From the IMG/VR virus record IMGVR_UViG_3300037512_001279, positions 32,001 through 96,000 of that record: a stretch of DNA of 64,000 bases. One strand, written 5' to 3'. Positions 8,490-64,000 of the stretch are shown piece by piece. Position numbers and translations under genes: made by a program. Below the pieces are notes generated by a model. It saw only the letters and a list, made by a program, of their open reading frames with translations. It had not been told where the DNA came from and did no database searches. The DNA comes from a virus (taxonomy: Duplodnaviria > Caudoviricetes). Each line of letters starts with the position of its first letter. The first letter of the stretch is position 1.

Positions 8490-11400
8490 ATGGCTGGGAA
8501 TACTGTTAGTATAGGTTTTGACTACAGAAAACAATTAGAAAAAGCCTGTAAAGATATAGAGCAATCTTTTGATAAAGTAATATCTTCGAATGATTATGGC
8601 AAAGATTTTGAAAAACAGATAAAGAACTTTAAAACAATGATTGCCGACATGAAAGATGATCTTTCGGATTCTTTTAAAGCTTTGTCAGACGGGAAGTTAA
8701 GTACGGAAAAATTTGAATCCTTTAAAGAGAACGTTAATAAGAAACTTAAAAACATAAATGATAGAGTTTCAGATTTAACGACAAACATAGATCAATTAAA
8801 CAAGGCATTAGGTTTTACCGGAGATAGCGTTGATTTAACAAGTGCTATTAATCAATTTAAGGAGCTTCAAGAATATATAAATACAAACAATGAAGCCGTT
8901 GAAAGGTTATTAAAAACACTTCAAACAGTTGATGGAAATCTTGAAATAAATGTTCCAAAGTTTTCTATTGATGAGGCAAAAGCACAGATAAAGCTTCTAA
9001 AAGGAATGATTAATGATTTAATGCAGGGTTCAAAAGAAGATATTTCTAAAAAACTTGCATCAATGACATCTAGCCAAATAGAAGTACTTTATTATGATTT
9101 ATCAGATAAATTTTCTGAATTGCAAGAGAAAAAAGACGAATTATTAGGAAAGATAAATGCAGCGCCAGACCAAAAGGATGGCGCTGTTTTAGCATTTAGG
9201 TCTGAATTGTCGCAGGCAGAAATTGAGATATCTAAATTGGCAGAAGACATAGAGGAAATATTTCAGTATGCCGGAGAAAGAAAATTCAAGTGGTTTGATT
9301 CAACCAAAAACGATAAAACAACAGTAAAATTTAGAAATACAATTTTAGAAATTAATAACAGTTTTGATGAAATAGAGACTAAATCACAAAAAATAATTAC
9401 TGATTTGCAAAGATATGTTGATTCGTTTTCTAATACTACTGCTAAAGTATCAGACAAACTAGAGGCTAACACTGGCGAAGTAAATGTTCAAGTAAAAATA
9501 GCTACTAGAAATGCCACTCTTATAAATGAATTAAAAGATAAAATAGAAAAGTTGCAAGAAGCATTAAATAATAAACCTCTAATTTTACCTGTAAAAATGG
9601 TTGTATCAAATGCCAGAACTACAAGCGAAGACCCATTAAAAACTAGCAAAGATGCAATAAATAAGGCAAGGAAGAAATTAAAAGAATCAACTGAAGATGT
9701 AGATATGGCAGATGCAATTCCAAAGCAGACATTGAAACAGGCTCTTATTAATGCTGAACGTGCTGCGAAGGAATCGTTTACTAGAATCCAAGAAATCTTT
9801 GATAAAACTCCTATCAACATTCATTTAACTGTTCCAGAGGAAGAAATACAGAAAATATCTGATTCTGTGTTTAGTGAAGACGGTAAAACTAAAATTGACA
9901 TTTCAAAACAAATAGATAATGCAAAAAAGAGAACGGATGAATTAATAAAATCTCTTAAAGAGGCAGATGAGACTGCATCAAAAACATTAAAAAAGAATAA
10001 ATATGCAGGGCTTGCTGAAGAAATACAAAAAAGCTTATCAGGGCTTGAAAGTCTTAAAGACATTCTTACTGCTATTCGTGATTTAGAAAGCACTCTTGGC
10101 AGAGCTACAAATGTAGCGACGAATAGTGATATTACTACTCAATGGAATAAAGTAAAGTTTTGGTTTGATTATATTTCTGATGAATCTGACAATATTAACT
10201 TTAATAAGCAAAGAGATCAAATAAATACATTGATGTCTGAATATCAGAAATACCTAAAAATGGGTGGACAAAATCCTCTTAGAAATCTTACCGATAATGA
10301 AGAAACAATAAGAAAATTATATAATAGATTCAACAAATTAAAAGACGTATCAGGAGATAAAATTGATGTCTCCGGAGAAGTTAAATCATTCAATGAAATA
10401 ACGGGTGCGGTTGATGAGTTAACCGTTGCTATTGGTGAAAAGAAAGTAGATGCAATAAATCAAGAAGCTTTGGCAATGGAAAGTGCTGCAGAAAGAGAAG
10501 TCAAAGCAATAAAATCAATAGACGACGAAATATCAGCGGCTCATTCTTCAGGGAAAAAAAATAAGCAGGATAAAGAATTAAAGAAAGAAAATATCCAAAA
10601 CATAGATGAATCTTCTTCTAAAATTACAGAAGAGTCTTTTGCTCTAGATAAAACTGCTGAATCAGCTGCGAATGCTGCAGAAGCAAAAGACAAATTTAGA
10701 AAATCTAATGAACTTCTTGCTACGAGTGCAAAAGATTCTGCAGATGCGTTGGCTATTGAAACTAATGCCCTGCAAGTTATTGAGAATATTGATTTAGATC
10801 ATAATTCTGATGAATTTAGAAATGCAGCAGAAGCCGCAAGAATGTATTGTGACGGGCTTGGCGAAATAGCTTCTATTACAAGAACATCCGGAACATATAA
10901 TACATATAACAGAAATACAGGCGAAATGGAACAAATGCTAAGAACATCGTACAGAGTTACTGATGTTAATGGCAATAGTCGTACGTTTAATCCACAAGGC
11001 AATATAATTGGTGCTAAAGATATTATAAATGCTACTGCCGCATATAGAGAATACTTAAAGATACAAGAACAAGTTTTTGCGATTAATAAAAAAGAGGCAT
11101 CTGGACAAGAATTATTAAATAGAGAAATTTCAGATAGAGAAAGTTTACTTAGAAAGCTTTCAGAACAAGAGGAATTAATTAATTCAATTGAGTCTAGAGG
11201 CCTTGAAAATTCTGAACTTAGAGAAGAAGTTGAAAGGCGAAGAATCGCAAATCAAAGGACTATTCAACAAATACAAAAAAATAGTATCTTAAACGGGCCT
11301 CTTGAAGGTTACGAAAGACAATTCTCATCATTAAATACAGATAAAAATTTATCAAAACAAACCGACGAATATAGAAGCAGATTGTTAGAGATTAATGATT

Positions 11401-14400
11401 TACTTCAAAGATTACAGGCATATAGAGACATAGATATATTTACAGATGAAGACGTTAATGATGTTACAAATTTAAGAACGCAGATAGATGGTTTATTTAA
11501 TGACTTATCCAACATGGATAAGGCTGCGAATAAGGCAAAGTCTTCCAGCGTACTTTCAAACATTACCGACTTCATAGCAAAAAATAGCAGGTTAAATTTG
11601 TCAAAACAAGGTAAGGAATACCTTTCTCAACTTGAAGAGTTACAGGATAGACTAAGAAGGGTTGGTCTTACTTCTAATGACATTCAAGATGTTGTTGCTG
11701 AGTTTAACAGATTAAAAATACAAATTACAGAAGCAGGGCTGGCTGGAAGAAGCTTTTTTGACATTATGAAGTCAAAAGCTTTCTATATGGCTGCTGAATA
11801 TCTCGCAAGGTATTTTAGTTTGCAAGATATTATTCGCTATATTAAAACTGCTGCCCAAAATGTTATTAATCTTAATACTCAGTTTACTGAGCTTGCAAAA
11901 GTTTCAGATACAAGCATTAAAAAACTCAATGCAGACTTTAAAGCATACGCAGACACAGCAAAAGAACTTGGTAGTACAATCACCGACACAATTTCTGCAA
12001 CGGCAGACTGGGCTAGAATGGGATATAATATTCCTGATAGCAAAGAACTCGCCCGTGTTGCTTTGATTTATAAGAATGTTGGCGACGGTATTGATATAAG
12101 TGCTGCAAACGAATCACTGATTTCTACATTACAAGGTTTCCAAATGGAAGCAAAAGACGCGTTACATATAATTGACGTGTTCAACGAAACTTCGAACAAC
12201 TTCGCAATTAGTTCGGCTGGAATTGGTGAAGCGTTACAAAGAAGTGCAGCTTCGTTTAATGCTGCTCATACGAGTCTTGAAAAATCTGTATCACTTGTTA
12301 CAACAACAAATACTGTATTACAAGATCCACAAGTTGTCGGAAATTTGTGGAAGACCATGAGTGCTCGAATTCGCGGTAAATTTGTGCCGTTTTATAGCGA
12401 AAGCTATAATGTGTGTTTCGAGTAAAAAATAATTACACACATAGATAACTATATAAGTCAAAAGATGATGGGACATCAGAGACTTAGGAAAGACTTATGA
12501 TTTTTATATATTTTTTAATTGGATGAAGAAGCCTGATTATTTAGCACTACAATTATAAAATATAAAAATCATAAGTATCCCAAGAGACTGCAGGACGCAT
12601 GTGGTAACATATGTGTTGAAGTTATCCCACTCTCCTATTATAGGAAATGGTAATATACAGTCCGATCCTACAATATAATCCCAAATTAATAAAATGAAAT
12701 GTAGGAATTTGGTAGAAATACCAAATCGCCATATATTATGGTCATAAAACTATTTCTCTGTATAGTTTAAGTAACAGAATTGGCAAAAACAGAGCTTGAA
12801 GAATTAAATGAAGAAGAGGATGAATTTACTGAGTCTACTTCTAAATTAAGAAGCCTTGTAAAAGGCCTTACTGGATTTGATATCATGCAAGATGAAGATA
12901 CATTCAAAGATTTGTATGATATTATTATTGGCATTGGTAAAGAGTGGAAAAATTTAACAGACATAGAGCGTGCTAGTCTTGGAGAGGCATTGGCTGGAAA
13001 AAGAATGGCGAACGGTCTTTACGCAGTGCTTGATAATCTAGATACTCTAGAAAAGGCATATAAAACTGCATCTGAATCTGATGGTTCCGCAATGCGTGAA
13101 CAGGAAAGATATCAACAGTCAATTCAATATTCAATTGACAGAACAAAAGCTTCTATTGAAGAGCTGTCAAACTCTTTACTTAATTCTGATTTACTCAAAT
13201 TCCTAGTTGATGTTGCAAACGGATTTGTTAACATTACAAATGAAGTAGTAAAATTCTCCGGTCTTCTCGGAACTATCGGCATCGGTGCTGGAGCATTTGC
13301 CGGAATAAAAAATCTCGGTAGGAGTAAAAAGTTTCTCCTCAATTCATTGATGATTTGAAAATTTTTCAAAAATCTCTTGCATTTTATATGTACAGAGAAT
13401 ATAATTATATAAAAAGAAGAGGTAGTACCGTAGGACAAACGGTTCACCACAGTTTATAGTTACTGTATCAAATTAGCAACCACATACCTTGGGGAAGGGC
13501 GGTTGCTTTTTTGATGGTTTATTTTTTGAAATGATCTAAGTACAAGCCGTAGATTACAACAACCGTCTGAACAGTTGCTACGGCAAGTGCTAAGATAGCT
13601 ATTACCATCATAGTACTTTCGTACCCCTTCGTTCTTATTTGCCATAGGCATCACTCTCCTTTTATTAGCGAAAAGTATTCCTTTGGCAGTTCTTTGGTTA
13701 AAGAACAACCAAGCGACTGAAGGGTGAACCGCTTACCCGTTTTAGTACTATCCTCTTCTTGTGCATTATAATACTTTAAAGCATTCAAATTGTCAATAAA
13801 AAATATGCCGAGGCTCACGTCGTTTTATCCAGTAATGGAATTTTTGTCGTGAGTGAGTGGATACGCTACCACAACATAAACACCCAATATGATCCTAATG
13901 GATGCGCATGAGCAAACATGCGCCTGGGAAATGACATAATCCATTACTACTCTCCCGCTTTGGGTTTGTGAAAATGTAATGGATGTCATGGTCAGCAGGG
14001 AAGCTTCTGTTTACAGGAGAACCCCCACAGTAATGATATGGGTGGTAATATTAGCCTGAAACGACTAACATTACAATAGACATTCGAAACTAACCGACAT
14101 GGCGGTAATTTGCAGGAGGAAGTACTCTCCTCTCCATGAATTGTTGGGGCAGATCGGACTGCCTGAGTATGTCCAAAGTAAAAGCAACCACATAACGCGG
14201 TTGCTTTTTGAAATAAAATCAAAATTTTATTTGATAGGTTACATAAACTTAAACAAATATATAAAAAATACAATTATGCTTATAACAATCCATGATATTA
14301 AAAATTTCTTGAAAAATCTTATATTTTTATTTATAGTACGAAGATGTTGCGTGATTTCTTCTAATTGTTCGTAAGCATCAAACTCGTAACACTCTTCCAT

Positions 14401-17400
14401 TTCGACATTGCAGTCTTTGCAATAAGTATCAGGTTCATCAGATGGTAGGTTGGCATAATCATTACATTCAGGGCATTTATATCTCTTGTATTTAATCATA
14501 ATATTATCTCTCCTTATACTAAGTATAAATAATAACAAGAATTATTCCGCAAATTAATTCTAAAATCGTTAAAACAAAAAAGAATTTCATCATTTTATAA
14601 ATGCCATGTACGTCTTTCTCTAAATTATATGTTTTTTCAGTTGTCTGAGTGTTGTTAATATTTTCAACAACAGCTTCCGTCGTTGCTTCTACCTCACCAA
14701 AATTCTCAAGAGATCCTCCACAAACACGACATATTGATGGAACTTTATCTTCTGGTGAGATTTTGTATTCTTTGCCGCATTTATAGCAAACATATTTTTT
14801 TATTATATCCCCCAATTGACATCACCTCCATATTTTAAGTATATCAACCAACATGATATTAGTCAAATAGTTTGAAATTTTTAGGAACACTTCCACAACT
14901 TAAAACCGCAATATCTTCTATTAGTGGATTATCTACAGATTTATTAGCAAATGGAGCTGATGGTTACATAAATGCAGTTAAAGGAATGACTGCACAAAAC
15001 GCTCTTCTTGTATTGTCTTATAAGAATTTAAGCGCAGCAGAAAAGAAAGAGATTCTTATCAAGGCCGGTGTTATTTCTGCTGATCAAGAGTTAATTGGAG
15101 AAAATGCACTTTTAGCTAAGTCAAATATCTCATTATCCGGAACATTTGGTATTATTGCAAGGAAGGCTGCTATGTCTGCTGCAGCAATTTTATCCAATCC
15201 AATTACATGGCTAGTTGGTGCAGTAGCCGCAACTACAATTGCAATAAAGAAAATGAACGAAGCCGTAGAAGAAGGCAGAGATAAAGCACAGGAATTGGGT
15301 TCGGAATTTGCAGATATTTCGCAAGAGCTTGATTCTTATAAAGAAAAAATAACTGAATTAACAGACAAAATAAAAGACCAGAAATCTTCAATCGAAACCG
15401 TGGTTGATTCAAGAAGACAGCTTGGTAAAATTCAGGATGAGCTTGTAAATAAATACGGTCATGAAGCAGAAGTAATTAATGCTGTTACAGATGCTATTAA
15501 TGGTCAGTCAGATGCAATAAATAATCTGTTTAATACAGTGTCTGCAGATGAGTGGCAAAAGGTAATGAACCAAATTAATAACACTGGTTTTTGGGCAAAT
15601 GCGGCGAACTGGCGTGACAACTACAAAGATCAGGTTGATCGTATAGAGCATGAATTATTTAATGAAACATATTCATTAACCGCTGCTGATAGCAGAATAT
15701 CTGTAGAACAAAGAAAATATTTTAAGAGCCTGCTTACTGAAAGGGGATGGACATATAATGAAGATAATATGTTCATGCAGTACACCGGAAGTAGAGAAAA
15801 AGCATTAAATGATATTCTTGATATTCAACAGGAGTTATCAAAGAAATTTGGCGATGATTTATCAAAAGTTCTATCTAAGACATTAACAGATTCATATAAC
15901 AGCATTAATGAAGTCTACGAAAAGTATAAAGAATTCAAAGATCAGTTTGTATTAAATTCTGTAATATTTAATCCACAGTACATGTTACAAAATGGTGAAG
16001 CAAACGGAGATTACCTTGCAAATGTATTATTAGGTTTAGAGGAAGAATACGAAGCATATATTTCGGCAGCAAACGAAGATGCTCAAAAGGCTGCCCTGCA
16101 AGGTCTTGCAAATCACCTAAGAGAGATTTTCAGCGAAGAAAATATTCCACAACTTGTTAAGGATTACATTAAACAATTATTCCCAACAATTTTTACAGAA
16201 GAAGATACAAAAATCACTCAAATAGAAAACGCAAAAAATCTTGCTAGAAATAAGGCATACGACAGTTTATATGCTGAAGCTTCTGGCTCTATGAATCGTA
16301 CTGATCAAGAAAAATTCAGAGAAGCTACTGGATTTGACAAAAAATACAATGCATTCATAGAAGAATATAAGATTGACTCCGAAGAAGAACTTGAACTTCT
16401 TGATGCATATATTGCAAAATATAAAGATCTTGATAAGGCATTTAGCCGGTATGCACAGGATGTAAAAACAGAATCACCTGTTCTTGATTACGAAGGCAAA
16501 AAAGACAGATCTAATTATACCGCCGACGATTACATAGAAGAAACAAAGTCTAACATCATTTCTCTTGGTGACGCTCTTAATAAACTTCAGACTAAAACAA
16601 TGACGTCTGCAGACAGAATGGCATTGTTTAAAGATTTTCCTGAGTTAGAATCAAGAGCAAACGACCTTGAAGAAGCGATTGGCGAAAAACTCGTCGGAGC
16701 AATTGATACATTAGAAAAGACAACCGGTAAGCAGTTAGCGCCTGAAATTAGACAGGGACTATTTGAACTTACTAGCGGCGCACTTCAAGCAAACAGAACT
16801 CTTAATGAAACGTTTAATACAATTAAAAACAGTTCAAGTGTTCTTAAGGAATTTAAGACAACTCTTAAGAATGGCGATCCAATTACTGAATCACTACTCT
16901 CTTCCATCGCAGGATTAAGTGACGAACTTGACACCTTAGTCGCAGGATTCTATGGCGGCGTTGTAACAGTTGAAGAGCTTTATGATGCCGTTGAAAAACA
17001 GCGTGAAGTTGATTTTGAGCGTTACAAGCAGTCTTACATAATGAAGCAGGCGCTCGATGAGAATTACTATAAAAATGCCATTGCGGGGCATAAAGAAGTA
17101 GTAAAACTGTTTAATGAACAGTATAAGATAGACCTTAGAAATTATACAAGCTATCAGATGGCGAAGTCTGAAGTTCAAAAGAAGATTCTTGGTCAGAATA
17201 TGAAGATGATATCTTTATATTATGACATTGAACAGATGCAATATACGGATGCCTATGCTAAACTTGAGAATGAAGCAAAGGCTTCTGTTGGACATTCTTA
17301 TGGCGAATATACAAAAGTTCGTTCTCTAATAAACGAATATAAACAAGCCATTGATGACCTTAATCAAATCGGCTGGACTGACTTCTTGGATGAACTTGAC

Positions 17401-20058
17401 AAGATGACTCTTGGCGATTTTGACAAGATTTCGGGTTCTACTAAGGATTATAAGGAACTCTTCGACTTCTTTGAGCGTCGTCTCGAAATTATTGATCAAT
17501 CGCTTAATAAGCTCGACGCATCACTTGAAGAAGTAAACGGCTCCATGGCAAAGAACATTCTTATTGCCGGTAAGATGAACATCGTGTCGAAACAGATTCA
17601 GGACTACACTTCTGCCCTCACGATGTACGAAAATAAGGCAAATCAGGAGCTGTCAAAACTCTCTGCAGACATGCAGGAAAAGATTAAGAACGGCTCTGTA
17701 AGCATTACTCAGCTTATTGGCGAGAATGGCGAAGAAGTTAACAAGACACTCGAGGAATACAAGAAGTGGGCAGACAAAGTAAACGACTGCAACGTTAAAC
17801 TTCTTGAGCTGCGTGAAACTCTGCGTGACCTCGCGCTTGAGAAATTCAACAACATTGCACAGGATTACTCCGACCAGTTTGACATTCTTGGTTCATCTAA
17901 CGACCTAATTGAAAAACAGATTTCATTGTTTGAAGAGGCAGGTCAGTTAATCGGTCGTGCGTTTTATGAAACTCAAATCGAGGCATCTCAGAAACAACGC
18001 ACAATTCTTGAGAAAGAAAAAGCCGCGCTTATTAAAGAGATGACGTCGGCGCTCTCTTCCGGTTACATTCAGAAGGGCAATGATGAATGGCTCGAAATGG
18101 CGAAGAGCATACAGGAAGTTGATTCCAGTATTCTCGACGTTGACCAATCCATAGAACAGCTTCAGAACTCCTTACTCGAACTCAACGACAAAGTATTTGA
18201 ACGCCTGCAGAATACGTTCTCAGACATCAATTCTCAGCTTTCCAACATTGTTGGAATGATCAGTGACGTTGACGTATCTGACGAATCTGGCGTATGGTCT
18301 GATGAAGGTCTTACTCAGTTAGGCGCATATGCACAGCAGTATGAGCTTGCGAGACACAACGTTGAGAAATATGAGGAAGAGATTCAGAAGCTCAATCAGT
18401 CCTACAGCGACGGTTTGTACTCTACTACGGAATACATTGACAAGCTCTCCGATCTTGCTCAGGCACAATGGGAGCAGGCCAATGCTGCAGAAGATGCAAA
18501 GAAGTCCATACTTGAACTTAACAAGGCAAGGGTTGAACTCGTAAAAGAAGGAATTCAAAAGCAGATTGACGCTTACAAGGAACTTATTGATAAGCAGAAA
18601 GAGGCTCTTGACCAGGAGAAATCCATCCGCGATTACGAGAAGACCATTGCAGAAAAGAATAAAAACATCAACAAACTGCAGAATCAGATTAACCTGTTAA
18701 GGAATGATGATTCTGCCGCGGCAAACGCTAAGAGAATTAAGCTTGAACAGGAGCTTGCTGATGCCAAGGCTGACCTTGAGGAAACTCAGTATGATCATTC
18801 AGTAGAGGCACAGAAGGAAGCCCTTGACAAGCAACTTGAAGATTTTGAAGATGCAAGGCAACAGGAAATTGATGAGTTAGAGGAATACCTGAAAGACGTC
18901 GAAAGGGTTCAGAAGGATTCGTTTGAAATCATCAAAAAGAATACCGACAAGATTGCAAAGCAAATCGAGAACATTGCCAAGACTCACGGCGTTGTTATTT
19001 CTGAAGCGATCACTAATTCTTGGAAGTCAGGTGAAGGGGCAATCGCCTCTTACGGTACTGCACTCTCATCTGCTTCCAGTGGATTTATTCAGCAGATCCA
19101 CGAGATTGAAATATATCTCGTCGCACTTCAGGATGAAGCTGACCTAACCGCAGACAGACTTGTTGGAATGTTGTCGGCTAAGGCTGATAACCTTCTTAAT
19201 GAATTTAATGCTGCAAGAGATTCCGAGAATGAACTTATCAGGGCAACCAATCTTCTTAATGAAGCATTGATTAAGACTCTTGAGGGTAATTATGACATTA
19301 GCGGAATTATTGGTGCGTTAAAGGAAGTTCAAAATCAGGTTGACGAAACCAAAAATAAGTTAACTGGTTCAACAAGCACAGGCAACGTTTCAAGTTCTAC
19401 TCAAAAAGCAATTCAGGATACCGTTTCTGCCGTTGCAAACGCAGGAGTCAAGGTTATTCCTGACGAACAAGTTAATGCAATAAAGAAACAGCAGGAACTT
19501 GATGCTCTCTCGTTTGATTATTACTATTACTGGAAACCAAAGACTCATGAGTATACGGCAGAGTATAAGAAACTTTCAGATGCCGTAAGATCTGGAGACA
19601 GTCAGGCTGCAATAGTTAAGAATAAGGTTGACAATGCCGTAGCAAGTTATCTTGCGAAGGAAGCTGCGATACTCAAGAAGTATGAAGGATTTGCCACCGG
19701 CGTACACAACCTTAACAGAACTCAGTTCGCATGGACTCAGGAGCAGGGTAACGAACTTGTGCTCTCTCCTACCAGAAATGCGATTCTTACCAAGCTAAAC
19801 AAGGGTGACACCGTACTTACTAAGGATCAGACAGACAACTTGTTTAAGTTAAGCAAGATTGATCCTGATTCCATCTTTGGTAAATTCGGCAAGATCAACG
19901 GAGTTGCAAGAGTTGAAGCTCCCGTACTTAGCATTGGAAACGTTCTTACCGTTAATGGAAACATTGACGACACGAATGCAGAAAAGATGAAGACCATTGC
20001 AATGTCTGCAATCAACACGGCCTTCAAGAAGTTCTCTAGTGAAATCGTTAAAAGATAA
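8490..20058 (+). CDS. Tape measure protein, spliced from exons 8490-12377, 12783-13319 and 14875-20058 (predicted 3202 aa)
   Basis: Long coiled-coil ORFs with a TP901-type TMP core (TISATADWARMGY...IIDVFNE..NNFAISS). Removing two group I introns joins the frames in phase: ...MSARIRG|AKTELEE... and ...GIKNLG|KFLGTLP...; C-terminal GFATG...WTQE.G.E motif. Confidence 0.85.
12378..12782 (+). ncRNA. Group I intron 1 in the tape measure gene (405 nt, ORF-less)
   Basis: 5' exon ends GCGGU, pairing with IGS GCCGU (U-G wobble at the splice site); UUUGU pairs with 3' exon GCAAA (P10); P7 GACUG (12586-90) / CAGUC (12658-62) within GAGACUG and AAUAUACAGUCC elements; terminal G at 12782; in-frame join. 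Confidence 0.92.
13377..13405 (+). promoter_or_regulatory. Sigma-A-type promoter for a putative antisense RNA inside intron 2
   Basis: TTGCAT-N17-TATAAT. Confidence 0.7.
13412..13512 (+). ncRNA. Putative antitoxin antisense RNA (about 100 nt)
   Basis: Lies between the 13377-13405 promoter and the terminator agcaacc...ggttgctttttt (13475-13512); convergent with and overlapping the 3' end of the small-peptide transcript. Confidence 0.55.
13519..13611 (-). CDS. Putative type I toxin peptide MMVIAILALAVATVQTVVVIYGLYLDHFKK (30 aa; not in the ORF track)
   Basis: Single hydrophobic helix with a KK C-terminus; GAAGGGG upstream; overlapped by a 63-aa leader ORF (13651-13460, RBS AAAAGGAGAG); own promoter with TTGACA at 13796-13791. 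Confidence 0.65.
   Translation of the reverse strand: MMVIAILALAVATVQTVVVIYGLYLDHFKK
14180..14209. terminator. Bidirectional terminator ending the intron-embedded antisense operon
   Basis: aaaagcaacc-acataacgc-ggttgcttttt. Confidence 0.75.
14239..14499 (-). CDS. Zn-ribbon protein with C-terminal TM helix (intron cargo; candidate superinfection-exclusion factor)
   Basis: CPEC...CKDC and a hydrophobic C-terminus; RBS AAGGAGAG before ATG 14499. Confidence 0.75.
   Translation of the reverse strand: MIKYKRYKCPECNDYANLPSDEPDTYCKDCNVEMEECYEFDAYEQLEEITQHLRTINKNIRFFKKFLISWIVISIIVFFIYLFKFM
14519..14815 (-). CDS. Zn-ribbon protein with C-terminal TM helix (intron cargo; same architecture as 14239-14499)
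   Basis: CYKC...CRVC and a hydrophobic C-terminus; RBS GGAGGTG. Confidence 0.75.
   Translation of the reverse strand: MGDIIKKYVCYKCGKEYKISPEDKVPSICRVCGGSLENFGEVEATTEAVVENINNTQTTEKTYNLEKDVHGIYKMMKFFFVLTILELICGIILVIIYT
14838..14866 (-). promoter_or_regulatory. Sigma-A-type promoter of the cargo genes, overlapping the intron P7 3' strand
   Basis: TTGACT (14866-14861)-N17-TATACT (14843-14838). Confidence 0.75.
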
Positions 20059-31030: not shown

Positions 31031-32221
31031 TTATGATGACAATGCTTTTTTGATTTGGGCTTGAGCCTCCTCAAAAGTCTTGTCAGAATAGTAGTAGTAA
31101 TCACGTGTGCAGTTAATATTCGTGTGTCCCATTTGTTTGATGATGAGTCTTTCGTCTACCCCGCCGTTAATAAGTTTCGTGGCATACGTTTTTCTGATTT
31201 TATGCATTGACCTTGGAGGTATTCCAAGTTTTTTACACAGTCTTAGAAGTCTCAACGTAAAACACCTGCTTAGGATTCTTTCTCCATTTTTCATAAACAT
31301 GTATTCACCGAATGGATTTTTCTTCCGTATTGTCGCAAGTATTTTTTTAGCCTCGTCATTTAATATGATCGTTCTGTTACCGGCTTCGGTCTTAGGAGAC
31401 TCTCTAACCTGGAATACGTAGCCACCATCTTTGTCCTTGAACCGTTCCTCTGTCTTTGTGATGCTCAACAAATCCCCAGTGACGTCGGAGTGCTTCAATG
31501 CAGAAAGTTCTCCTACTCTCAACCCTGTTTGAAAAACCAATAGAATTCCAAGGTCAATTAAGCTAGACCTCTTCCACAATTCGAACTCAACAGCATCGAT
31601 TTCTTCTTTTGTGAAAACCGAATCTTCATCTCGAATAACCTTTTTCTTAAAGGCTTTTCTTGACAGTTCGAGATAATCACCGAAGAAATCTTTTGCACTT
31701 ATGTCCGTGTATCCCCGTTTTTTGCCATACTTTAAAACGCCTATAATTAAGGTTCTTACACCATTGTAAGCCTTGTAAGACAGATTAAAGTCGGAAATTG
31801 TTTTCTTAATAAAGTCTTCAAGCTCTGACTCCGTCAGTCGTTGCAGTTCTACCTTGTCGAAACCAGTTTTTACAAAGTATCTTGTAAAGTCCGTCCTGTA
31901 ACGATCATATGTTTGTTTTTGTATTTCATTATATTCTAGTTTCCTGTCCACCCATTTGTCAAAAATTTCTCCAAACGTGTTCACCTGACTATGTTGGAAT
32001 ATCAGGTCTTCAATTTCTTCTTTTGTTTTCTTTCGCTGCAACGCCCTCCCTTTCCTTGAATCATCAATGTACGTGTACCAATAACCGTTTTCTCCTTGCC
32101 AAATTTTGTGATTGTGTTTTTGCAGTGCTTCTTCTTTTTTCTTCATATCAATTTGGTCGCTTAATAAGTTCGCGTCTATTATACCATTCTTTAACGCGAA
32201 ATTCAATGTACTTTCATTCAA
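31031..32221 (-). CDS. int: Tyrosine integrase
   Basis: TGLRVGEL (R), SPKT (K), HKIRKTY (H-x-x-R), MGH, YY. Confidence 0.92.
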   Translation of the reverse strand: MNESTLNFALKNGIIDANLLSDQIDMKKKEEALQKHNHKIWQGENGYWYTYIDDSRKGRALQRKKTKEEIEDLIFQHSQVNTFGEIFDKWVDRKLEYNEIQKQTYDRYRTDFTRYFVKTGFDKVELQRLTESELEDFIKKTISDFNLSYKAYNGVRTLIIGVLKYGKKRGYTDISAKDFFGDYLELSRKAFKKKVIRDEDSVFTKEEIDAVEFELWKRSSLIDLGILLVFQTGLRVGELSALKHSDVTGDLLSITKTEERFKDKDGGYVFQVRESPKTEAGNRTIILNDEAKKILATIRKKNPFGEYMFMKNGERILSRCFTLRLLRLCKKLGIPPRSMHKIRKTYATKLINGGVDERLIIKQMGHTNINCTRDYYYYSDKTFEEAQAQIKKALSS

Positions 32222-46966: not shown

Positions 46967-49900
46967 TTATACCTGAATGCTGTTGCAAATGTCGTAATCA
47001 GTAACCCACCATTCCTTCTCGTCCGTGTCAGTCCATTTGCCGTTAACCATAACCTTTTTATTCTGTTTCGCCTGATTCTTAACCTTGATGATGTCACCAA
47101 TTCGGATCGGATTGTTTTCAAACAACTTCTTTGCAATCTTAACCGGAATGGTATTGCCATTCGCCATGGCATATAGCTTAAGTTTTGGCGAATATTTTGT
47201 ATCTAAATCAGTAACATAGCAATATCCTGCATACTTCTTGTCAACTATGTCAACATATCCAAGGTTTTCCATTTGATACGCTATTTTTTGTTTAGTAGTA
47301 GTCCTGTATGTCCTGTATTTATCAGACAGAATCTTTACCAATTTAGCGCCGTCCAACTCCATAAAAGTCTTGGGAGTCTCTTTACTGCAACACGACCTGA
47401 TTAATTCAAAATCAAGACCACTCTCCAAAGCCTTGTCTTTTTTAATCTGCTTCTTTGAATAATATTCAGAAAAGTATTCGTTGCACTTCAACAAATAAAC
47501 AATATCGCCAAACTCCTCGAAGAAATTCAACTTTATTAGAATATCAAGTTTCCTACTGTCAACCTTCAGGTCGCCAATTCTTGCCAATAAATCAATAAAC
47601 GAATCAAATGATTCTTCTCTAATGGAATACAGATCATCTGCCGCAGTTTCGTTAAGGAATTTTACAGACTCAATTCCTTTATAAATTCCAGTTTCGTCAC
47701 ACGAATATTTTGCGGTTGAGTGCCTAAATTTAATGCTATGAATAGGAATTCCAAGTTGTTTTGCCAATTGAGTACCCATCATAATGTCGTCTTCGTTATT
47801 GGCATTATTAAGGTACGCCGTGATAAATTCCTTCGGATAATAATAACGCAAGTATGCGCACATATATCCAATCATTGAATAACCAGTGGAATGATTATCG
47901 TTTTACCCATTATTTCTAATGGAACAGACTATATCATCAACTTAATTACTTAAGTTGTCTTGCACTACCGGTGGCAACTCATCTTCCACCGTCTTATACA
48001 TAATGTATGTTTAGTCGTTTGACCTTATAAACTAAAATTAGTTTATCTTGGCACAGGATTGACACCAACTTTACTTGCTGTGCTTTCCCTGTTAGCGCAA
48101 TTTTTAGCCATCATTTCCTATGGTTACTAAACGTAAATTGCACACCCATGAGTAATATGGTTCACAAGATTATTCAATATACGTCACCGTATAAGGGGGC
48201 TAATCATCCTAACCCAAATTGATAACTTGCACTGTCTTCAATGATTTGTAAGAACGCTTTGGCTTCTTTCTCAGCAACGTCTCTCGTCTTATCAGATTTA
48301 CTGCAATATCCTTCAAGGATTGCAGGTAATGCAGCTTCAAGTCTATCCTTTTGTTTTCTACCTATTGCACGACGAATGTTGTCTGCCTGAGATCCACTAA
48401 GACCACATATGTTTGTAAGAAATTTGATTGTATCCTCCTGGAATACCAAATATCCATCGTTTTCTTTTAGAAGGTCGTCGATTAATTTTGACGGATTTTT
48501 ATTTGGAATTTTGGCAAGAAGCCTATCTCTATAACTTTCACCTGACGGACGCAATGCTGCATTTACCAAAGACAAATCGTTAACACAAGCACACTTAAAC
48601 TTTTTCATTAGATCGAATGCATACCTGCCTTCAAATTGAAACACGCCTACTGGACTATCTCCAATATGATCCCACACATTTTTATCTAGCCAATCTACAG
48701 TGTGAGACTTAGGATACGGAATGCCTGCCAAAATACAAGTATCCTTAATAATCTCAATGTTCTTCAATCCCAACAAATCATACTTTACAAGGCTTACCTC
48801 GTGGATTTCCTCCATGTTAATCGACAGAATTCTTTTGCCGTCCTTCGCCCAGAAAGTGCCGTAATTGTCAGGAAGTGTTACCGGACTAACTATAATTCCT
48901 GCAGGATGCATGGATTGTGCTATTGTAGTTCCAACAAGTCCGTCAAAATAATAGAATACTTTTGGATATTCAATTTCCTTCAGTCTCTTCAATGCCTTTT
49001 CTGCATTTTCAATCTTTTTCTTGCATTCTTCTAAGTCATTCTGAAGCTTTTCCGTCTGAACTGTTTTAAGATTTTCCTCAATCTTCTTCATCTTTTCTTG
49101 CGTATCTGCGATTGTTGACGTGAAGTTTGAGTATAATTCCTTAATGTTCTTTACTTCATCTAAAGGAATGTCAAGTGCCCTGCCGATTTCATCAATCGTT
49201 CCTTTGTCAGAAACCGTAGTCATTGCAAGCACGTATGCGGTTTTGTCAGCACCAAACTTCTCAATAATGTGATCATACACAAGCTGTCTCTGTGACGGAG
49301 AAATGTCAAGATCAATGTCGCCAATTTCTTTACGGTCTTCGTTAGCAAATCTTGAGAATACCGTATTCCATACAATTGGATTAACGTCTATAATGTCAGT
49401 CAAATATGCTATGGTCGAACCGCCAACCGAACCCCTACAGAACCCCACCGGAATGTCGTTATCCCAACACCAGCACACAAGCTCTGACATGAACAGCATA
49501 AATCCAATCATTCCAATCTTTTTGAAAACTCTAAGCTCTTCCTGGATGTTCTCTTCATATCTTGGATCAGGTTGAATTATTCCTTTTTCAAGCTTCTCGT
49601 GGTACATTCTGTATATTCTTTCAACAAAAACTTCTTCTTCGTTGTCATACAGAACCGGATATTTAAATGCCGTGTCAAGTTCATAGTCTTCAACCATGTC
49701 TGCCATGCGATTAGTATTCTCTATGGCTTCTAATACAACGTCCATTGGCAATGAATTTTGCTGTCTAAACATTGCAACAAGTTCATCATAAGACTTGTAA
49801 GTAAGATCAAACTCGTCTTCATTTGAGAATTCAATCTTCTTAGCCTTTTGAAGGATGCTTCTGCACTCGGCCTTATATTTATCAAGGCTATGCGTATCCG

Positions 49901-50504
49901 TCGCTGCAATCAACGGTTTACCGTATCTTTTAGATGCCTCCCATAATGCCTGATTGTACTTGATTTGTTCAAACGAGTTAACGTGTGGCTGAATTTCGTA
50001 ATAATCATACGACCTAAGCAGTTTGTCATACGTTATCCTTGCGGTTTCATCATCAACGGTTTCTTTTACAAATGCAGGATACCTGCTTAATGGAGATGCA
50101 AGACATGCAGAAATCTTAATTATGTTATCTGAAATGTTAAAGAACTCATCAAACGAAATTCTAGGCTTGTAATACATGTGATCTTCTCTAGTCGATGTGT
50201 CTACGAGTTTGTTTAATTCCTTGATTCCATCTTTGTTTTTTGCTATAAGGATGGTATGGTAATTATCCCTGACCTTCGGCTCAAGCTCTGCCGTTAGGTA
50301 AATCTCAACGCCATGCATGTACTTTAAACCTTTTTCGTTGGCATACATTTTCTTTTCGATATTGTTATAAATATTGCCATGTTCCGTAAAACATATTGCG
50401 GTTTGTCCAAGCTCTGCGGCTCTGTCTACATACAATTTGTAGTTCGTACAACTATCTAGCAATGAATCTTCCGTATGCAAATGATAGCAAACATAATTCG
50501 GCAC
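46967..50504 (-). CDS. dnaE: DNA polymerase III alpha subunit; exons 50504-48212 and 47898-46967 (1074 aa)
   Basis: PHP domain (HLHT..SLLDS, TEHG), RGSVGGS, DIDLD, HPAG, KYDLLGL; spliced junction YQFG-Y-NHSTGY. Confidence 0.93.
47899..48211 (-). ncRNA. Group I intron in dnaE (313 nt, ORF-less)
   Basis: Exon GGGU pairs with IGS GCCC; GAUUA pairs with 3' exon UAAUC; R element CAAACGACUA, S element GAUGAUAUAGUCU; terminal G; restores GGG T|AT AAT CAT. Confidence 0.92.
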
Positions 50505-63570: not shown

Positions 63571-64000
63571 TTAAAATATTGAAGATGATATTAATTGCGC
63601 AGCCATAACTTTATCATCAATACTACTATCGTCAAGATAAATTTCAGTTGTATCAGGCCTTTCATGACCCATTAGTTGTTTTACCAAGTGTAAATTACCT
63701 GTCTTATTAATCATAATATTTCCAAAAGCAGCACGAAGCTTATGTGGACTAATTTCATATCCCAATGCATCATACGCATATTTTCTAACAATTTTTGATA
63801 TTGAAGAAGAAGTAATTCTAGTTCTTGTAGAAGATATAAATAATGCATCCGTTTTATTGTATCCAATCAAAAATACTTCTCTGTGATAAATCCATTCCTG
63901 TATAGCAATGATTAATTTATCACTTAATGCATATACATGTGTTTTATGGCCCTTATCAATTATAGTTATAGTTTTATCTTCAAAATTTACATCTTCCACA
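63571..64000 (-). CDS. XerC/D-like tyrosine recombinase (C-terminal part; start is outside the window)
   Basis: DKG.K, SPHKLR, LMGH...TTEIY. Confidence 0.88.
   Translation of the reverse strand, partial: VEDVNFEDKTITIIDKGHKTHVYALSDKLIIAIQEWIYHREVFLIGYNKTDALFISSTRTRITSSSISKIVRKYAYDALGYEISPHKLRAAFGNIMINKTGNLHLVKQLMGHERPDTTEIYLDDSSIDDKVMAAQLISSSIF

Follow-up and report, generated by a model that had tools for sequence, protein, structure and literature searches.

A 64,000-nt stretch (the window) of a 121.7-kb IMG/VR virus record carries a tape-measure protein (TMP) gene that is split by a group I-like intron. In L1, the loop of the intron's substrate helix P1, we identified a self-contained insert of ~440 nt that, judged from its sequence, is probably a type I toxin–antitoxin cassette. 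The sequence supports the presence of the full anatomy of such a locus, i.e., a gene for a small membrane peptide, a convergent antisense unit, and structured RNAs. A first-pass annotation had placed a cassette of this kind in the loop of the intron, and all sequence elements that it listed were recovered at their stated positions.

The TMP gene is present on the plus strand in three open reading frame (ORF) pieces (8490-12425, 12780-13358, and 14872-20058), and long open frames are retained in all three exons. In the relative L002, TMP is a single unbroken protein of 3971 amino acids (aa). Comparison by tblastn placed the two breaks exactly after ...MSARIRG (12377; insertion 1) and after ...GIKNLG (13319; insertion 2), and the TMPs of L004 and L005 align continuously over the second break into exon 3. 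Insertion 2 splits, precisely and in frame, a gene that relatives have in one piece, as is typical for group I introns. Comparison with L002, L004, and L005 delimits it to 13320-14874 on the plus strand, the predicted 5' and 3' splice sites being located after U13319 and G14874, respectively. Splicing at G14874 would be in frame and give ...GIKNLG|KFLGTLP..., which is similar to GVKSFGQMLG of L005. A candidate P10 is formed by AAAAAUAU (13799-13806) and AAAUUUUU of exon 3 (14875-14882), with seven of eight positions paired; in L120, the one relative that allowed a comparison, the P10-like pairing is shifted by 2 nt. The alternative junctions ...NLG|SNSLKFLG and ...KKF|LKFLG were rejected because they either lacked P10 pairing or required a 5' splice base other than U.

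P1 consists of the last six bases of exon 2, CUCGGU (13314-13319), and the internal guide sequence GCCGAG (13807-13812), with U13319·G13807 at the splice site. Tabulation of P1 by script revealed the pair CUCGGU/GCCGAG in the window; eleven relatives have GUCGGU/GCCGAC, and six have GUUGGU/GCCAAC. This amounts to two independent compensatory events around the U·G pair at the splice site, the arrangement expected for P1 of a group I intron. Using insertion 2 as nhmmer query, we found a homologous core in L030, L035, and L069, directly past the same end of exon 2. A conserved 20-mer of the core further occurs in 23 IMG/VR contigs, each of which has the complete core at this TMP position, and had zero matches in GTDB genomes. 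RNAalifold analysis of 14 distinct cores yielded 94 consensus pairs, 49 of which show compensatory changes. The window core (13813-14180, plus strand), delimited as ribozyme-like by covariation in the family alignments, is the most divergent one (~53% identity). Of the 57 central pairs, 44 are nevertheless retained, with double changes accounting for 17 of these, and this pattern in the alignment argues for a core that is maintained rather than decayed.

The distance between the 5' splice site and the guide, and hence L1, comprises 29-55 nt in 21 relatives and 485 nt in the window. Alignment of the loops (L112, L113, L120, and others) revealed a common small hairpin, AGGAG…CUCCU (13320-13339), which in the window is followed by ~440 extra nt (13360-13801, approximate ends). 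By this comparison, i.e., short loops in relatives and the loop alignment, the whole cassette is identified as a lineage-specific insertion in L1. The proposal that it lies within the P1 loop is thereby borne out, together with the covariation of P1.

The candidate toxin of the cassette is encoded by a 30-aa ORF on the minus strand (13611-13519), the product of which, MMVIAILALAVATVQTVVVIYGLYLDHFKK, consists of one hydrophobic helix and the tail DHFKK; it matches the hydrophobic peptide ending in KK that had been noted before. The best 19-residue stretch has a mean hydropathy of 2.66. We screened all 414 ORFs of the window that start with ATG and encode 20-60 aa for a 19-residue stretch with a mean hydropathy of at least 2.4 and at least two K/R among the last six residues, and this peptide was the sole one to combine a membrane-grade stretch with a basic tail. 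By definition, type I toxins are shorter than 60 aa, are predicted to contain a transmembrane helix, and carry charge at the C-terminus (PMC6563280); the peptide agrees with this definition in size, helix, and tail. A phmmer search against 1.84 billion protein representatives returned one homologue, P0001 (E = 3e-7), with 87% identity over 30 residues and four conservative changes (V3A, A10V, V17T, and V19T). P0001 is encoded on a single 543-bp ENA contig that is independent of the window. Other searches gave no relatives: blastn and tblastn found none of the cassette in the phage and plasmid collections, degenerate back-translated patterns of the C-terminus had zero matches in IMG/VR and only chance matches in unrelated frames in JGI metagenomes and GTDB genomes, a peptide search of 401 Clostridia genomes gave nothing meaningful, and a search for related loci with P0001 as query gave nothing.

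Upstream of the toxin AUG, the minus strand contains the Shine–Dalgarno-like sequence GAAGGGG (13630-13624), followed by a GUAC-GAAA-GUAC hairpin (13624-13613). This stretch (13612-13630) reads identically in the upstream frame of P0001 (KGYEST). In the minimum-energy fold of the mRNA, GAAG of GAAGGGG is paired with CUUC of the upstream CCCUUC (13724-13719), the other G's pair inside the coding region, and the toxin start codon lies within a hairpin.

Both convergent promoters of the first-pass annotation are present, and they differ in strength. The toxin promoter TTGACA-17-TATTAT (13796-13768, minus strand) scores 11 of 12 and is the best promoter-like site in the 2.7 kb from 12300 to 15000, while the candidate antitoxin promoter TTGCAT-17-TATAAT (13379-13407, plus strand) combines a perfect -10 box with a -35 box matching at only three of six positions. 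Each predicted start, 7 nt past the respective -10 box, falls on the first base (A) of the shared repeat AAGAAGAGG, so that the two RNAs would have a nearly identical leader of ~35 nt. The inverted repeats at the ends of the cassette, which had also been proposed, were confirmed and pair 13414-13422 with 13752-13760 (9/9) and 13437-13448 with 13723-13734 (11/12). An additional outer pair is formed by 13343-13359 and 13784-13800 (17 nt, 82% complementary), the right arm of which includes the -35 box of the toxin promoter; in the sense RNA, its predicted pair probability reaches 0.99. The expected antisense unit of ~100 nt with a terminator was likewise found. The predicted antisense RNA (~99 nt, 13414-13512, plus strand) folds with -32.7 kcal/mol (z = -4.8) and ends in a terminal hairpin followed by U6; promoter, start, structure, and terminator are thus all predicted, with the -35 box as the weak element. 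Its complementarity to the toxin mRNA is confined to the 3' untranslated part, since the antisense RNA stops 7 nt before reaching the stop codon of the toxin ORF. Its terminator is part of a bidirectional hairpin (13467-13515) with a strong U6 on the plus strand and a weaker UAAUUUGAU on the minus strand.

For the toxin mRNA, we predict a full-length transcript from 13760 to 13405 (minus strand; 3' end inferred), in which the 5' end (13760-13723) pairs with the 3' end (13448-13414). This RNA folds with -128.8 kcal/mol (z = -8.7) and paired ends. Fold quality and repeats also bear on whether the insert is merely decaying or neutral DNA that the loop tolerates, with promoters, ORF, and repeats as leftovers or coincidence. 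Such an origin would fit the window being the sole carrier of an L1 insert among 24 family members and the cassette being an orphan in all collections searched. We nevertheless regard it as quite improbable, since the ORF is intact and found with 87% identity in an independent contig, the toxin promoter matches at 11 of 12 positions, the folds of both strands have z-scores of -8.7 and -8.3, and both starts coincide with the first repeat base.

The second of these z-scores belongs to the sense RNA. In its minimum-energy fold, the cassette is nested within the outer repeat and P1 (z = -8.3), and P1 is predicted to pair with probabilities of 0.93-0.99 in sense-RNA contexts of 530 nt and 966 nt, values that are thermodynamic predictions only. 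The folding check suggested for the intron loop thus turned out in favor of a nested cassette, and the modelled folds support that the end repeats let P1 form over the insert in the intron RNA. In the sense direction, end repeats and outer repeat would give the cassette the form of a long hairpin. The guide, 487 nt away, would then remain within reach of the 5' splice site, and the essential TMP gene would still be spliceable. These nested stems, which close the loop and permit P1, would also be expected if the hairpin were mainly an intron element, i.e., an extended P1/L1 arm for ribozyme folding, with the ORF and the antisense RNA as by-products. We consider this highly improbable: 21 relatives pair the splice site with an L1 of only 29-55 nt and need no long arm, promoters and terminator would be superfluous in such an arm, and it is the other strand that clearly forms the better structure. 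Over the same coordinates, the minus strand folds with -128.8 kcal/mol and the plus strand with -110.9 kcal/mol, a difference of 18 kcal/mol, and the two folds contain 15 and 5 G·U pairs, respectively. The closing duplex alone has -44.3 kcal/mol on the minus strand versus -36.4 kcal/mol on the plus strand. From the better minus-strand fold and the G·U count, the end repeats look like primarily a feature of the toxin mRNA that is tolerated or exploited by the intron, and not built for it. Of the dual role that had been ascribed to the repeats, both parts are therefore seen in the predicted folds, in that the mRNA ends pair and P1 forms, but the two are not equal, as the strand of the toxin mRNA forms the stem with an advantage of 8 kcal/mol.

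For the preferred type I toxin–antitoxin reading, we propose the following mechanism, which is modelled on the 3'-overlapping type I loci of Firmicute prophages (PMC3834814, PMC3531473, PMC6563280, PMC7699646) and on the fold-back of hok/sok. The host-type promoter on the minus strand would drive an mRNA for the 30-aa single-helix membrane peptide, and the convergent plus-strand promoter would drive a ~100-nt RNA with full complementarity to this mRNA's 3' untranslated part. In the full-length mRNA, base pairing between the two ends and CCCUUC covering the ribosome-binding site would act as a lock, and the mRNA would therefore be stable but poorly translated. The antisense RNA, carrying the same leader as the mRNA 5' end, could displace that end from the 3' arm. 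A perfect ~100-bp duplex would then form for RNase III, the 5' end would be exposed to 5' exonuclease, and the mRNA would be destroyed. If the element is lost, the short-lived antisense RNA would decay first and the peptide would be made; it would damage the membrane, and cells without the prophage would be removed.

A different function of the peptide has to be considered as well. It could be a non-toxic accessory membrane protein, e.g., for modulation of host membrane proteins or phage exclusion, in which case the plus-strand RNA would be a cis-antisense regulator or a terminator and the cassette a moron. The other cargo of the same intron indeed comprises separately promoted genes for small zinc-ribbon proteins with a membrane anchor, no toxin family is matched by the peptide, and many small hydrophobic phage proteins are not toxins. 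We judge a moron of this type unlikely, because it would not need the features specific to type I loci, namely mRNA locking, a sequestered ribosome-binding site, 5'-3' pairing, and a convergent RNA at the 3' end.

Several points weigh against the assignment as a type I cassette in a group I-like intron. P0001 is the single known homologue of the peptide; neither the peptide nor the leader ORF described below matches Pfam or NCBIfam (E up to 10) or PHROGs, and Rfam, at gathering as well as permissive thresholds, detected nothing in the cassette and no antitoxin RNA family. The distance from GAAGGGG to the AUG is 12 nt, and the weak -35 box on the plus strand is below the threshold of the promoter scanner and was hence not listed by the scan. 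Inclusion of the 3' arm further requires that the mRNA reads through the weaker minus-strand side of the terminator. This terminator and a second bidirectional one (14181-14212), the stem of which is almost identical, are oriented along the TMP gene and should hinder its transcription unless late transcription resists them. Since relatives also have a terminator past the intron core, late transcription in this phage group is presumably resistant to termination. Finally, the Rfam group I model RF00028 found nothing up to E 10 in 12300-15000 or 13795-14240, although it detects the intron at 47906-48160 of the window; the label "group I" therefore rests on architecture and comparison.

In Firmicute prophages, convergent type I modules encoding a small hydrophobic toxin with a basic tail are typical and aid prophage maintenance (PMC6563280, PMC7699646, PMC3531473). 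Loci with a 3'-overlapping antisense RNA are known from prophages of Bacillus subtilis, i.e., txpA/RatA (skin), bsrG/SR4, and yonT/SR6 (SPbeta) (PMC3834814, PMC3531473, PMC6562991). The window cassette, as predicted from its sequence, shares with these a single-helix small toxin with a charged C-terminus, convergent genes, an antisense RNA at the 3' end, a structured mRNA with a masked ribosome-binding site, and a probable prophage location, and RNase III-dependent decay would be expected. In contrast to the B. subtilis loci, the antisense RNA of the window stops short of the coding region, both RNAs share their 5' leader, the cassette is located in an intron loop and not between genes, and there is no sequence similarity. 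Searches for TxpA/BsrG gave no family match in Pfam, NCBIfam, or PHROGs, and Rfam revealed no RatA/SR4-type RNA, so that only the 3'-overlap layout is common. The type I modules of Clostridioides difficile, found in phiCD630-1/2 and next to CRISPR arrays, e.g., CD0977.1-RCd11 and CD2517.1-RCd8, form a family for which a role in keeping prophages was shown (PMC7699646, PMC5961336, PMC6563280). Common features are the Clostridia host class, the toxin size (30-59 aa in C. difficile), a hydrophobic N-terminal part with a lysine-rich tail, and a convergent overlapping RNA (predicted for the window). The window peptide differs in being at the short end (30 aa), in having two lysines only, in its intron context, and in the lack of homology detectable by phmmer.

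Outside the Firmicutes, the cassette resembles hok/sok in the long-range pairing of mRNA ends (predicted for the window) and in an overlapping upstream leader frame with a better ribosome-binding site. In hok/sok of plasmid R1, which belongs to a Gram-negative family and has mok as leader frame, 5'-3' pairing keeps the full-length mRNA inert. The two systems differ in that Sok pairs with the 5' leader and the window antisense RNA with the 3' end, and the leader ORF of the window is probably not conserved. The peptide had no Pfam match to Hok/Gef, and no match to Fst/Ldr (PF13955) was obtained in Pfam or NCBIfam up to E 10. The par-type layout, with direct repeats at the 5' side and RNAs complementary at the toxin start, is also not realized, as the window repeats are inverted and the 5' leaders alike instead of complementary. 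Altogether, the peptide is type I-like by design, and not a member of the Fst/Ldr, TxpA/BsrG, Hok, or C. difficile families. The resemblance to type I systems that had been claimed thus stands for the layout, whereas a profile check of small-toxin families gave no Pfam, NCBIfam, or PHROG match.

Regarding the intron, group I introns were described in TMP genes of B. cereus-group prophages (TMP-IVS1/2/3; PMC2504315). The window intron is like these and like phage introns bearing homing endonuclease genes in its in-frame position in TMP, in P1/P10 guide pairing, and in loop cargo that spares the core. Unlike them, the window family is missed by RF00028, and instead of a homing endonuclease its cargo comprises genes with promoters of their own, located in L1 (one gene) and past the core (the others). 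Phage group I introns are known as carriers of homing endonuclease genes, and type I toxin–antitoxin loci are known from positions between prophage genes; both kinds would be combined in a type I-like locus that occupies the substrate-helix loop of an intron in an essential structural gene. In our literature search, no paper was found that links a group I intron to a type I toxin–antitoxin system. Particular to the window locus are its location in L1 and the strand-shared repeats. Going further, one repeat pair might serve the RNAs of both strands, as lock of the mRNA and as P1 clamp of the pre-mRNA, and make cassette and intron mutually dependent. The lytic pre-mRNA or the excised intron would then act as a second, completely antisense antitoxin, and a lysogen would be penalized for losing intron or prophage; we put this forward with low confidence only. 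If the cassette is a real type I locus, intron loops would be safe insertion sites for independently expressed genes, an RNA structure could be common to transcripts of opposite strands, an addiction module would be physically tied to a selfish RNA element, and a toxin family with almost no relatives would be added.

The 63-aa leader ORF of the first-pass annotation (13651-13460, minus strand) is present in a frame different from that of the toxin and has a strong Shine–Dalgarno sequence, AAAGGAGAG (13662-13654). It extends through the terminator. Comparison with P0001 casts doubt on its coding role. Upstream of the toxin AUG, the window reads …IKGE*CLWQIRTKGYEST and P0001 …IKESDALWKIKQKGYEST, a difference for which the best explanation is that the nucleotides are conserved apart from two 1-nt indels that compensate each other. 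Owing to these indels, the 63-aa ORF would have its first AUG in a different frame in the homologue, and the two Val-to-Thr changes of the peptide correspond to Gly-to-Asp and Cys-to-Tyr in the leader frame. Because of the frame-shifted start region and these two changes, the coding status of the ORF is doubtful, and the behavior of the region upstream of the toxin AUG fits a non-coding leader.

Related TMPs are present in Clostridia and in Bacillota metagenome-assembled genomes from the gut. The record contains three genes of the tyrosine recombinase/integrase type (31031-32221 and 63571-64000, both on the minus strand, and G000:11060-11524), which makes a temperate lifestyle plausible at the sequence level. 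The virus is probably temperate, with gut Clostridia as its hosts.

The 3' cargo of the intron comprises two paralogues of ~98 aa on the minus strand (14815-14519 and 14538-14239), each with a zinc ribbon and a C-terminal transmembrane helix. The pair has its own promoter, TTGACT-17-TATACT with TG (14866-14838, minus strand), as well as its own terminator. Copies of the same intron are larger in two relatives, with ~6 kb in L120 (230-6239) and >4 kb in L035 (4538 onward). Both copies carry several cargo ORFs on both strands past the core, and the 3' part is a variable cargo bay. The hairpins of the cassette terminator (13474-13515) and of the terminator past the core (14180-14212) both contain AGCAACCACATA…GCGGTTGCTTTTT, a likeness that hints at duplication or exchange between the two.

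In the core model, the helices, named by analogy, are P3 (13881-86/14039-44), P4 (13924-27/13992-95), P6 (13998-14000/14023-25), P7 (14026-35/14081-86), and P8 (14045-54/14065-74). The assignment of P3 and P7 is consistent with their order and conservation; P7 is invariant and hence gives no covariation information, and the nested helices co-vary strongly. UAUGUC (14166-72) and UUAGUC (14859-64) were rejected as 3' strand of P7, as the pair conserved in the alignment of the family is CACAGUAAUG/CAUUCG. The motif CCTGAAACGACTAAC was dismissed as a marker of the intron family because it gave chance matches only. The sequence GAUAUUAGUC (14855-14864), located 10 nt ahead of the 3' splice site, resembles a textbook J8/7-P7 strand and is complementary to GACUA in the P8 loop (14063-14067), but the family alignment argues against P7; its counterpart in L120 is GGUCAA. 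Eight family members (among them L117, L123, L125, L126, L127, L129, and L130) have the guide ACUCGAC opposite the exon sequence GUCGGU, and their splice-site U faces C instead of the usual G.

Insertion 1 of the TMP gene comprises 405 nt (12378-12782) without an ORF; the 5' exon ends in U and the insert in G. It had no match to the Rfam group I model, and it belongs to a conserved family found at the same site in many relatives. In L030, L035, L036, L037, and L050, an extra 1.7 kb separates its 5' and 3' parts, with an ORF of ~490 aa in L035. A canonical group I intron (Rfam, 57.5 bits) is found on the minus strand at 47906-48160, between the ORFs 46967-47875 and 48204-50504, and bears P7.1/P7.2-like inserts.

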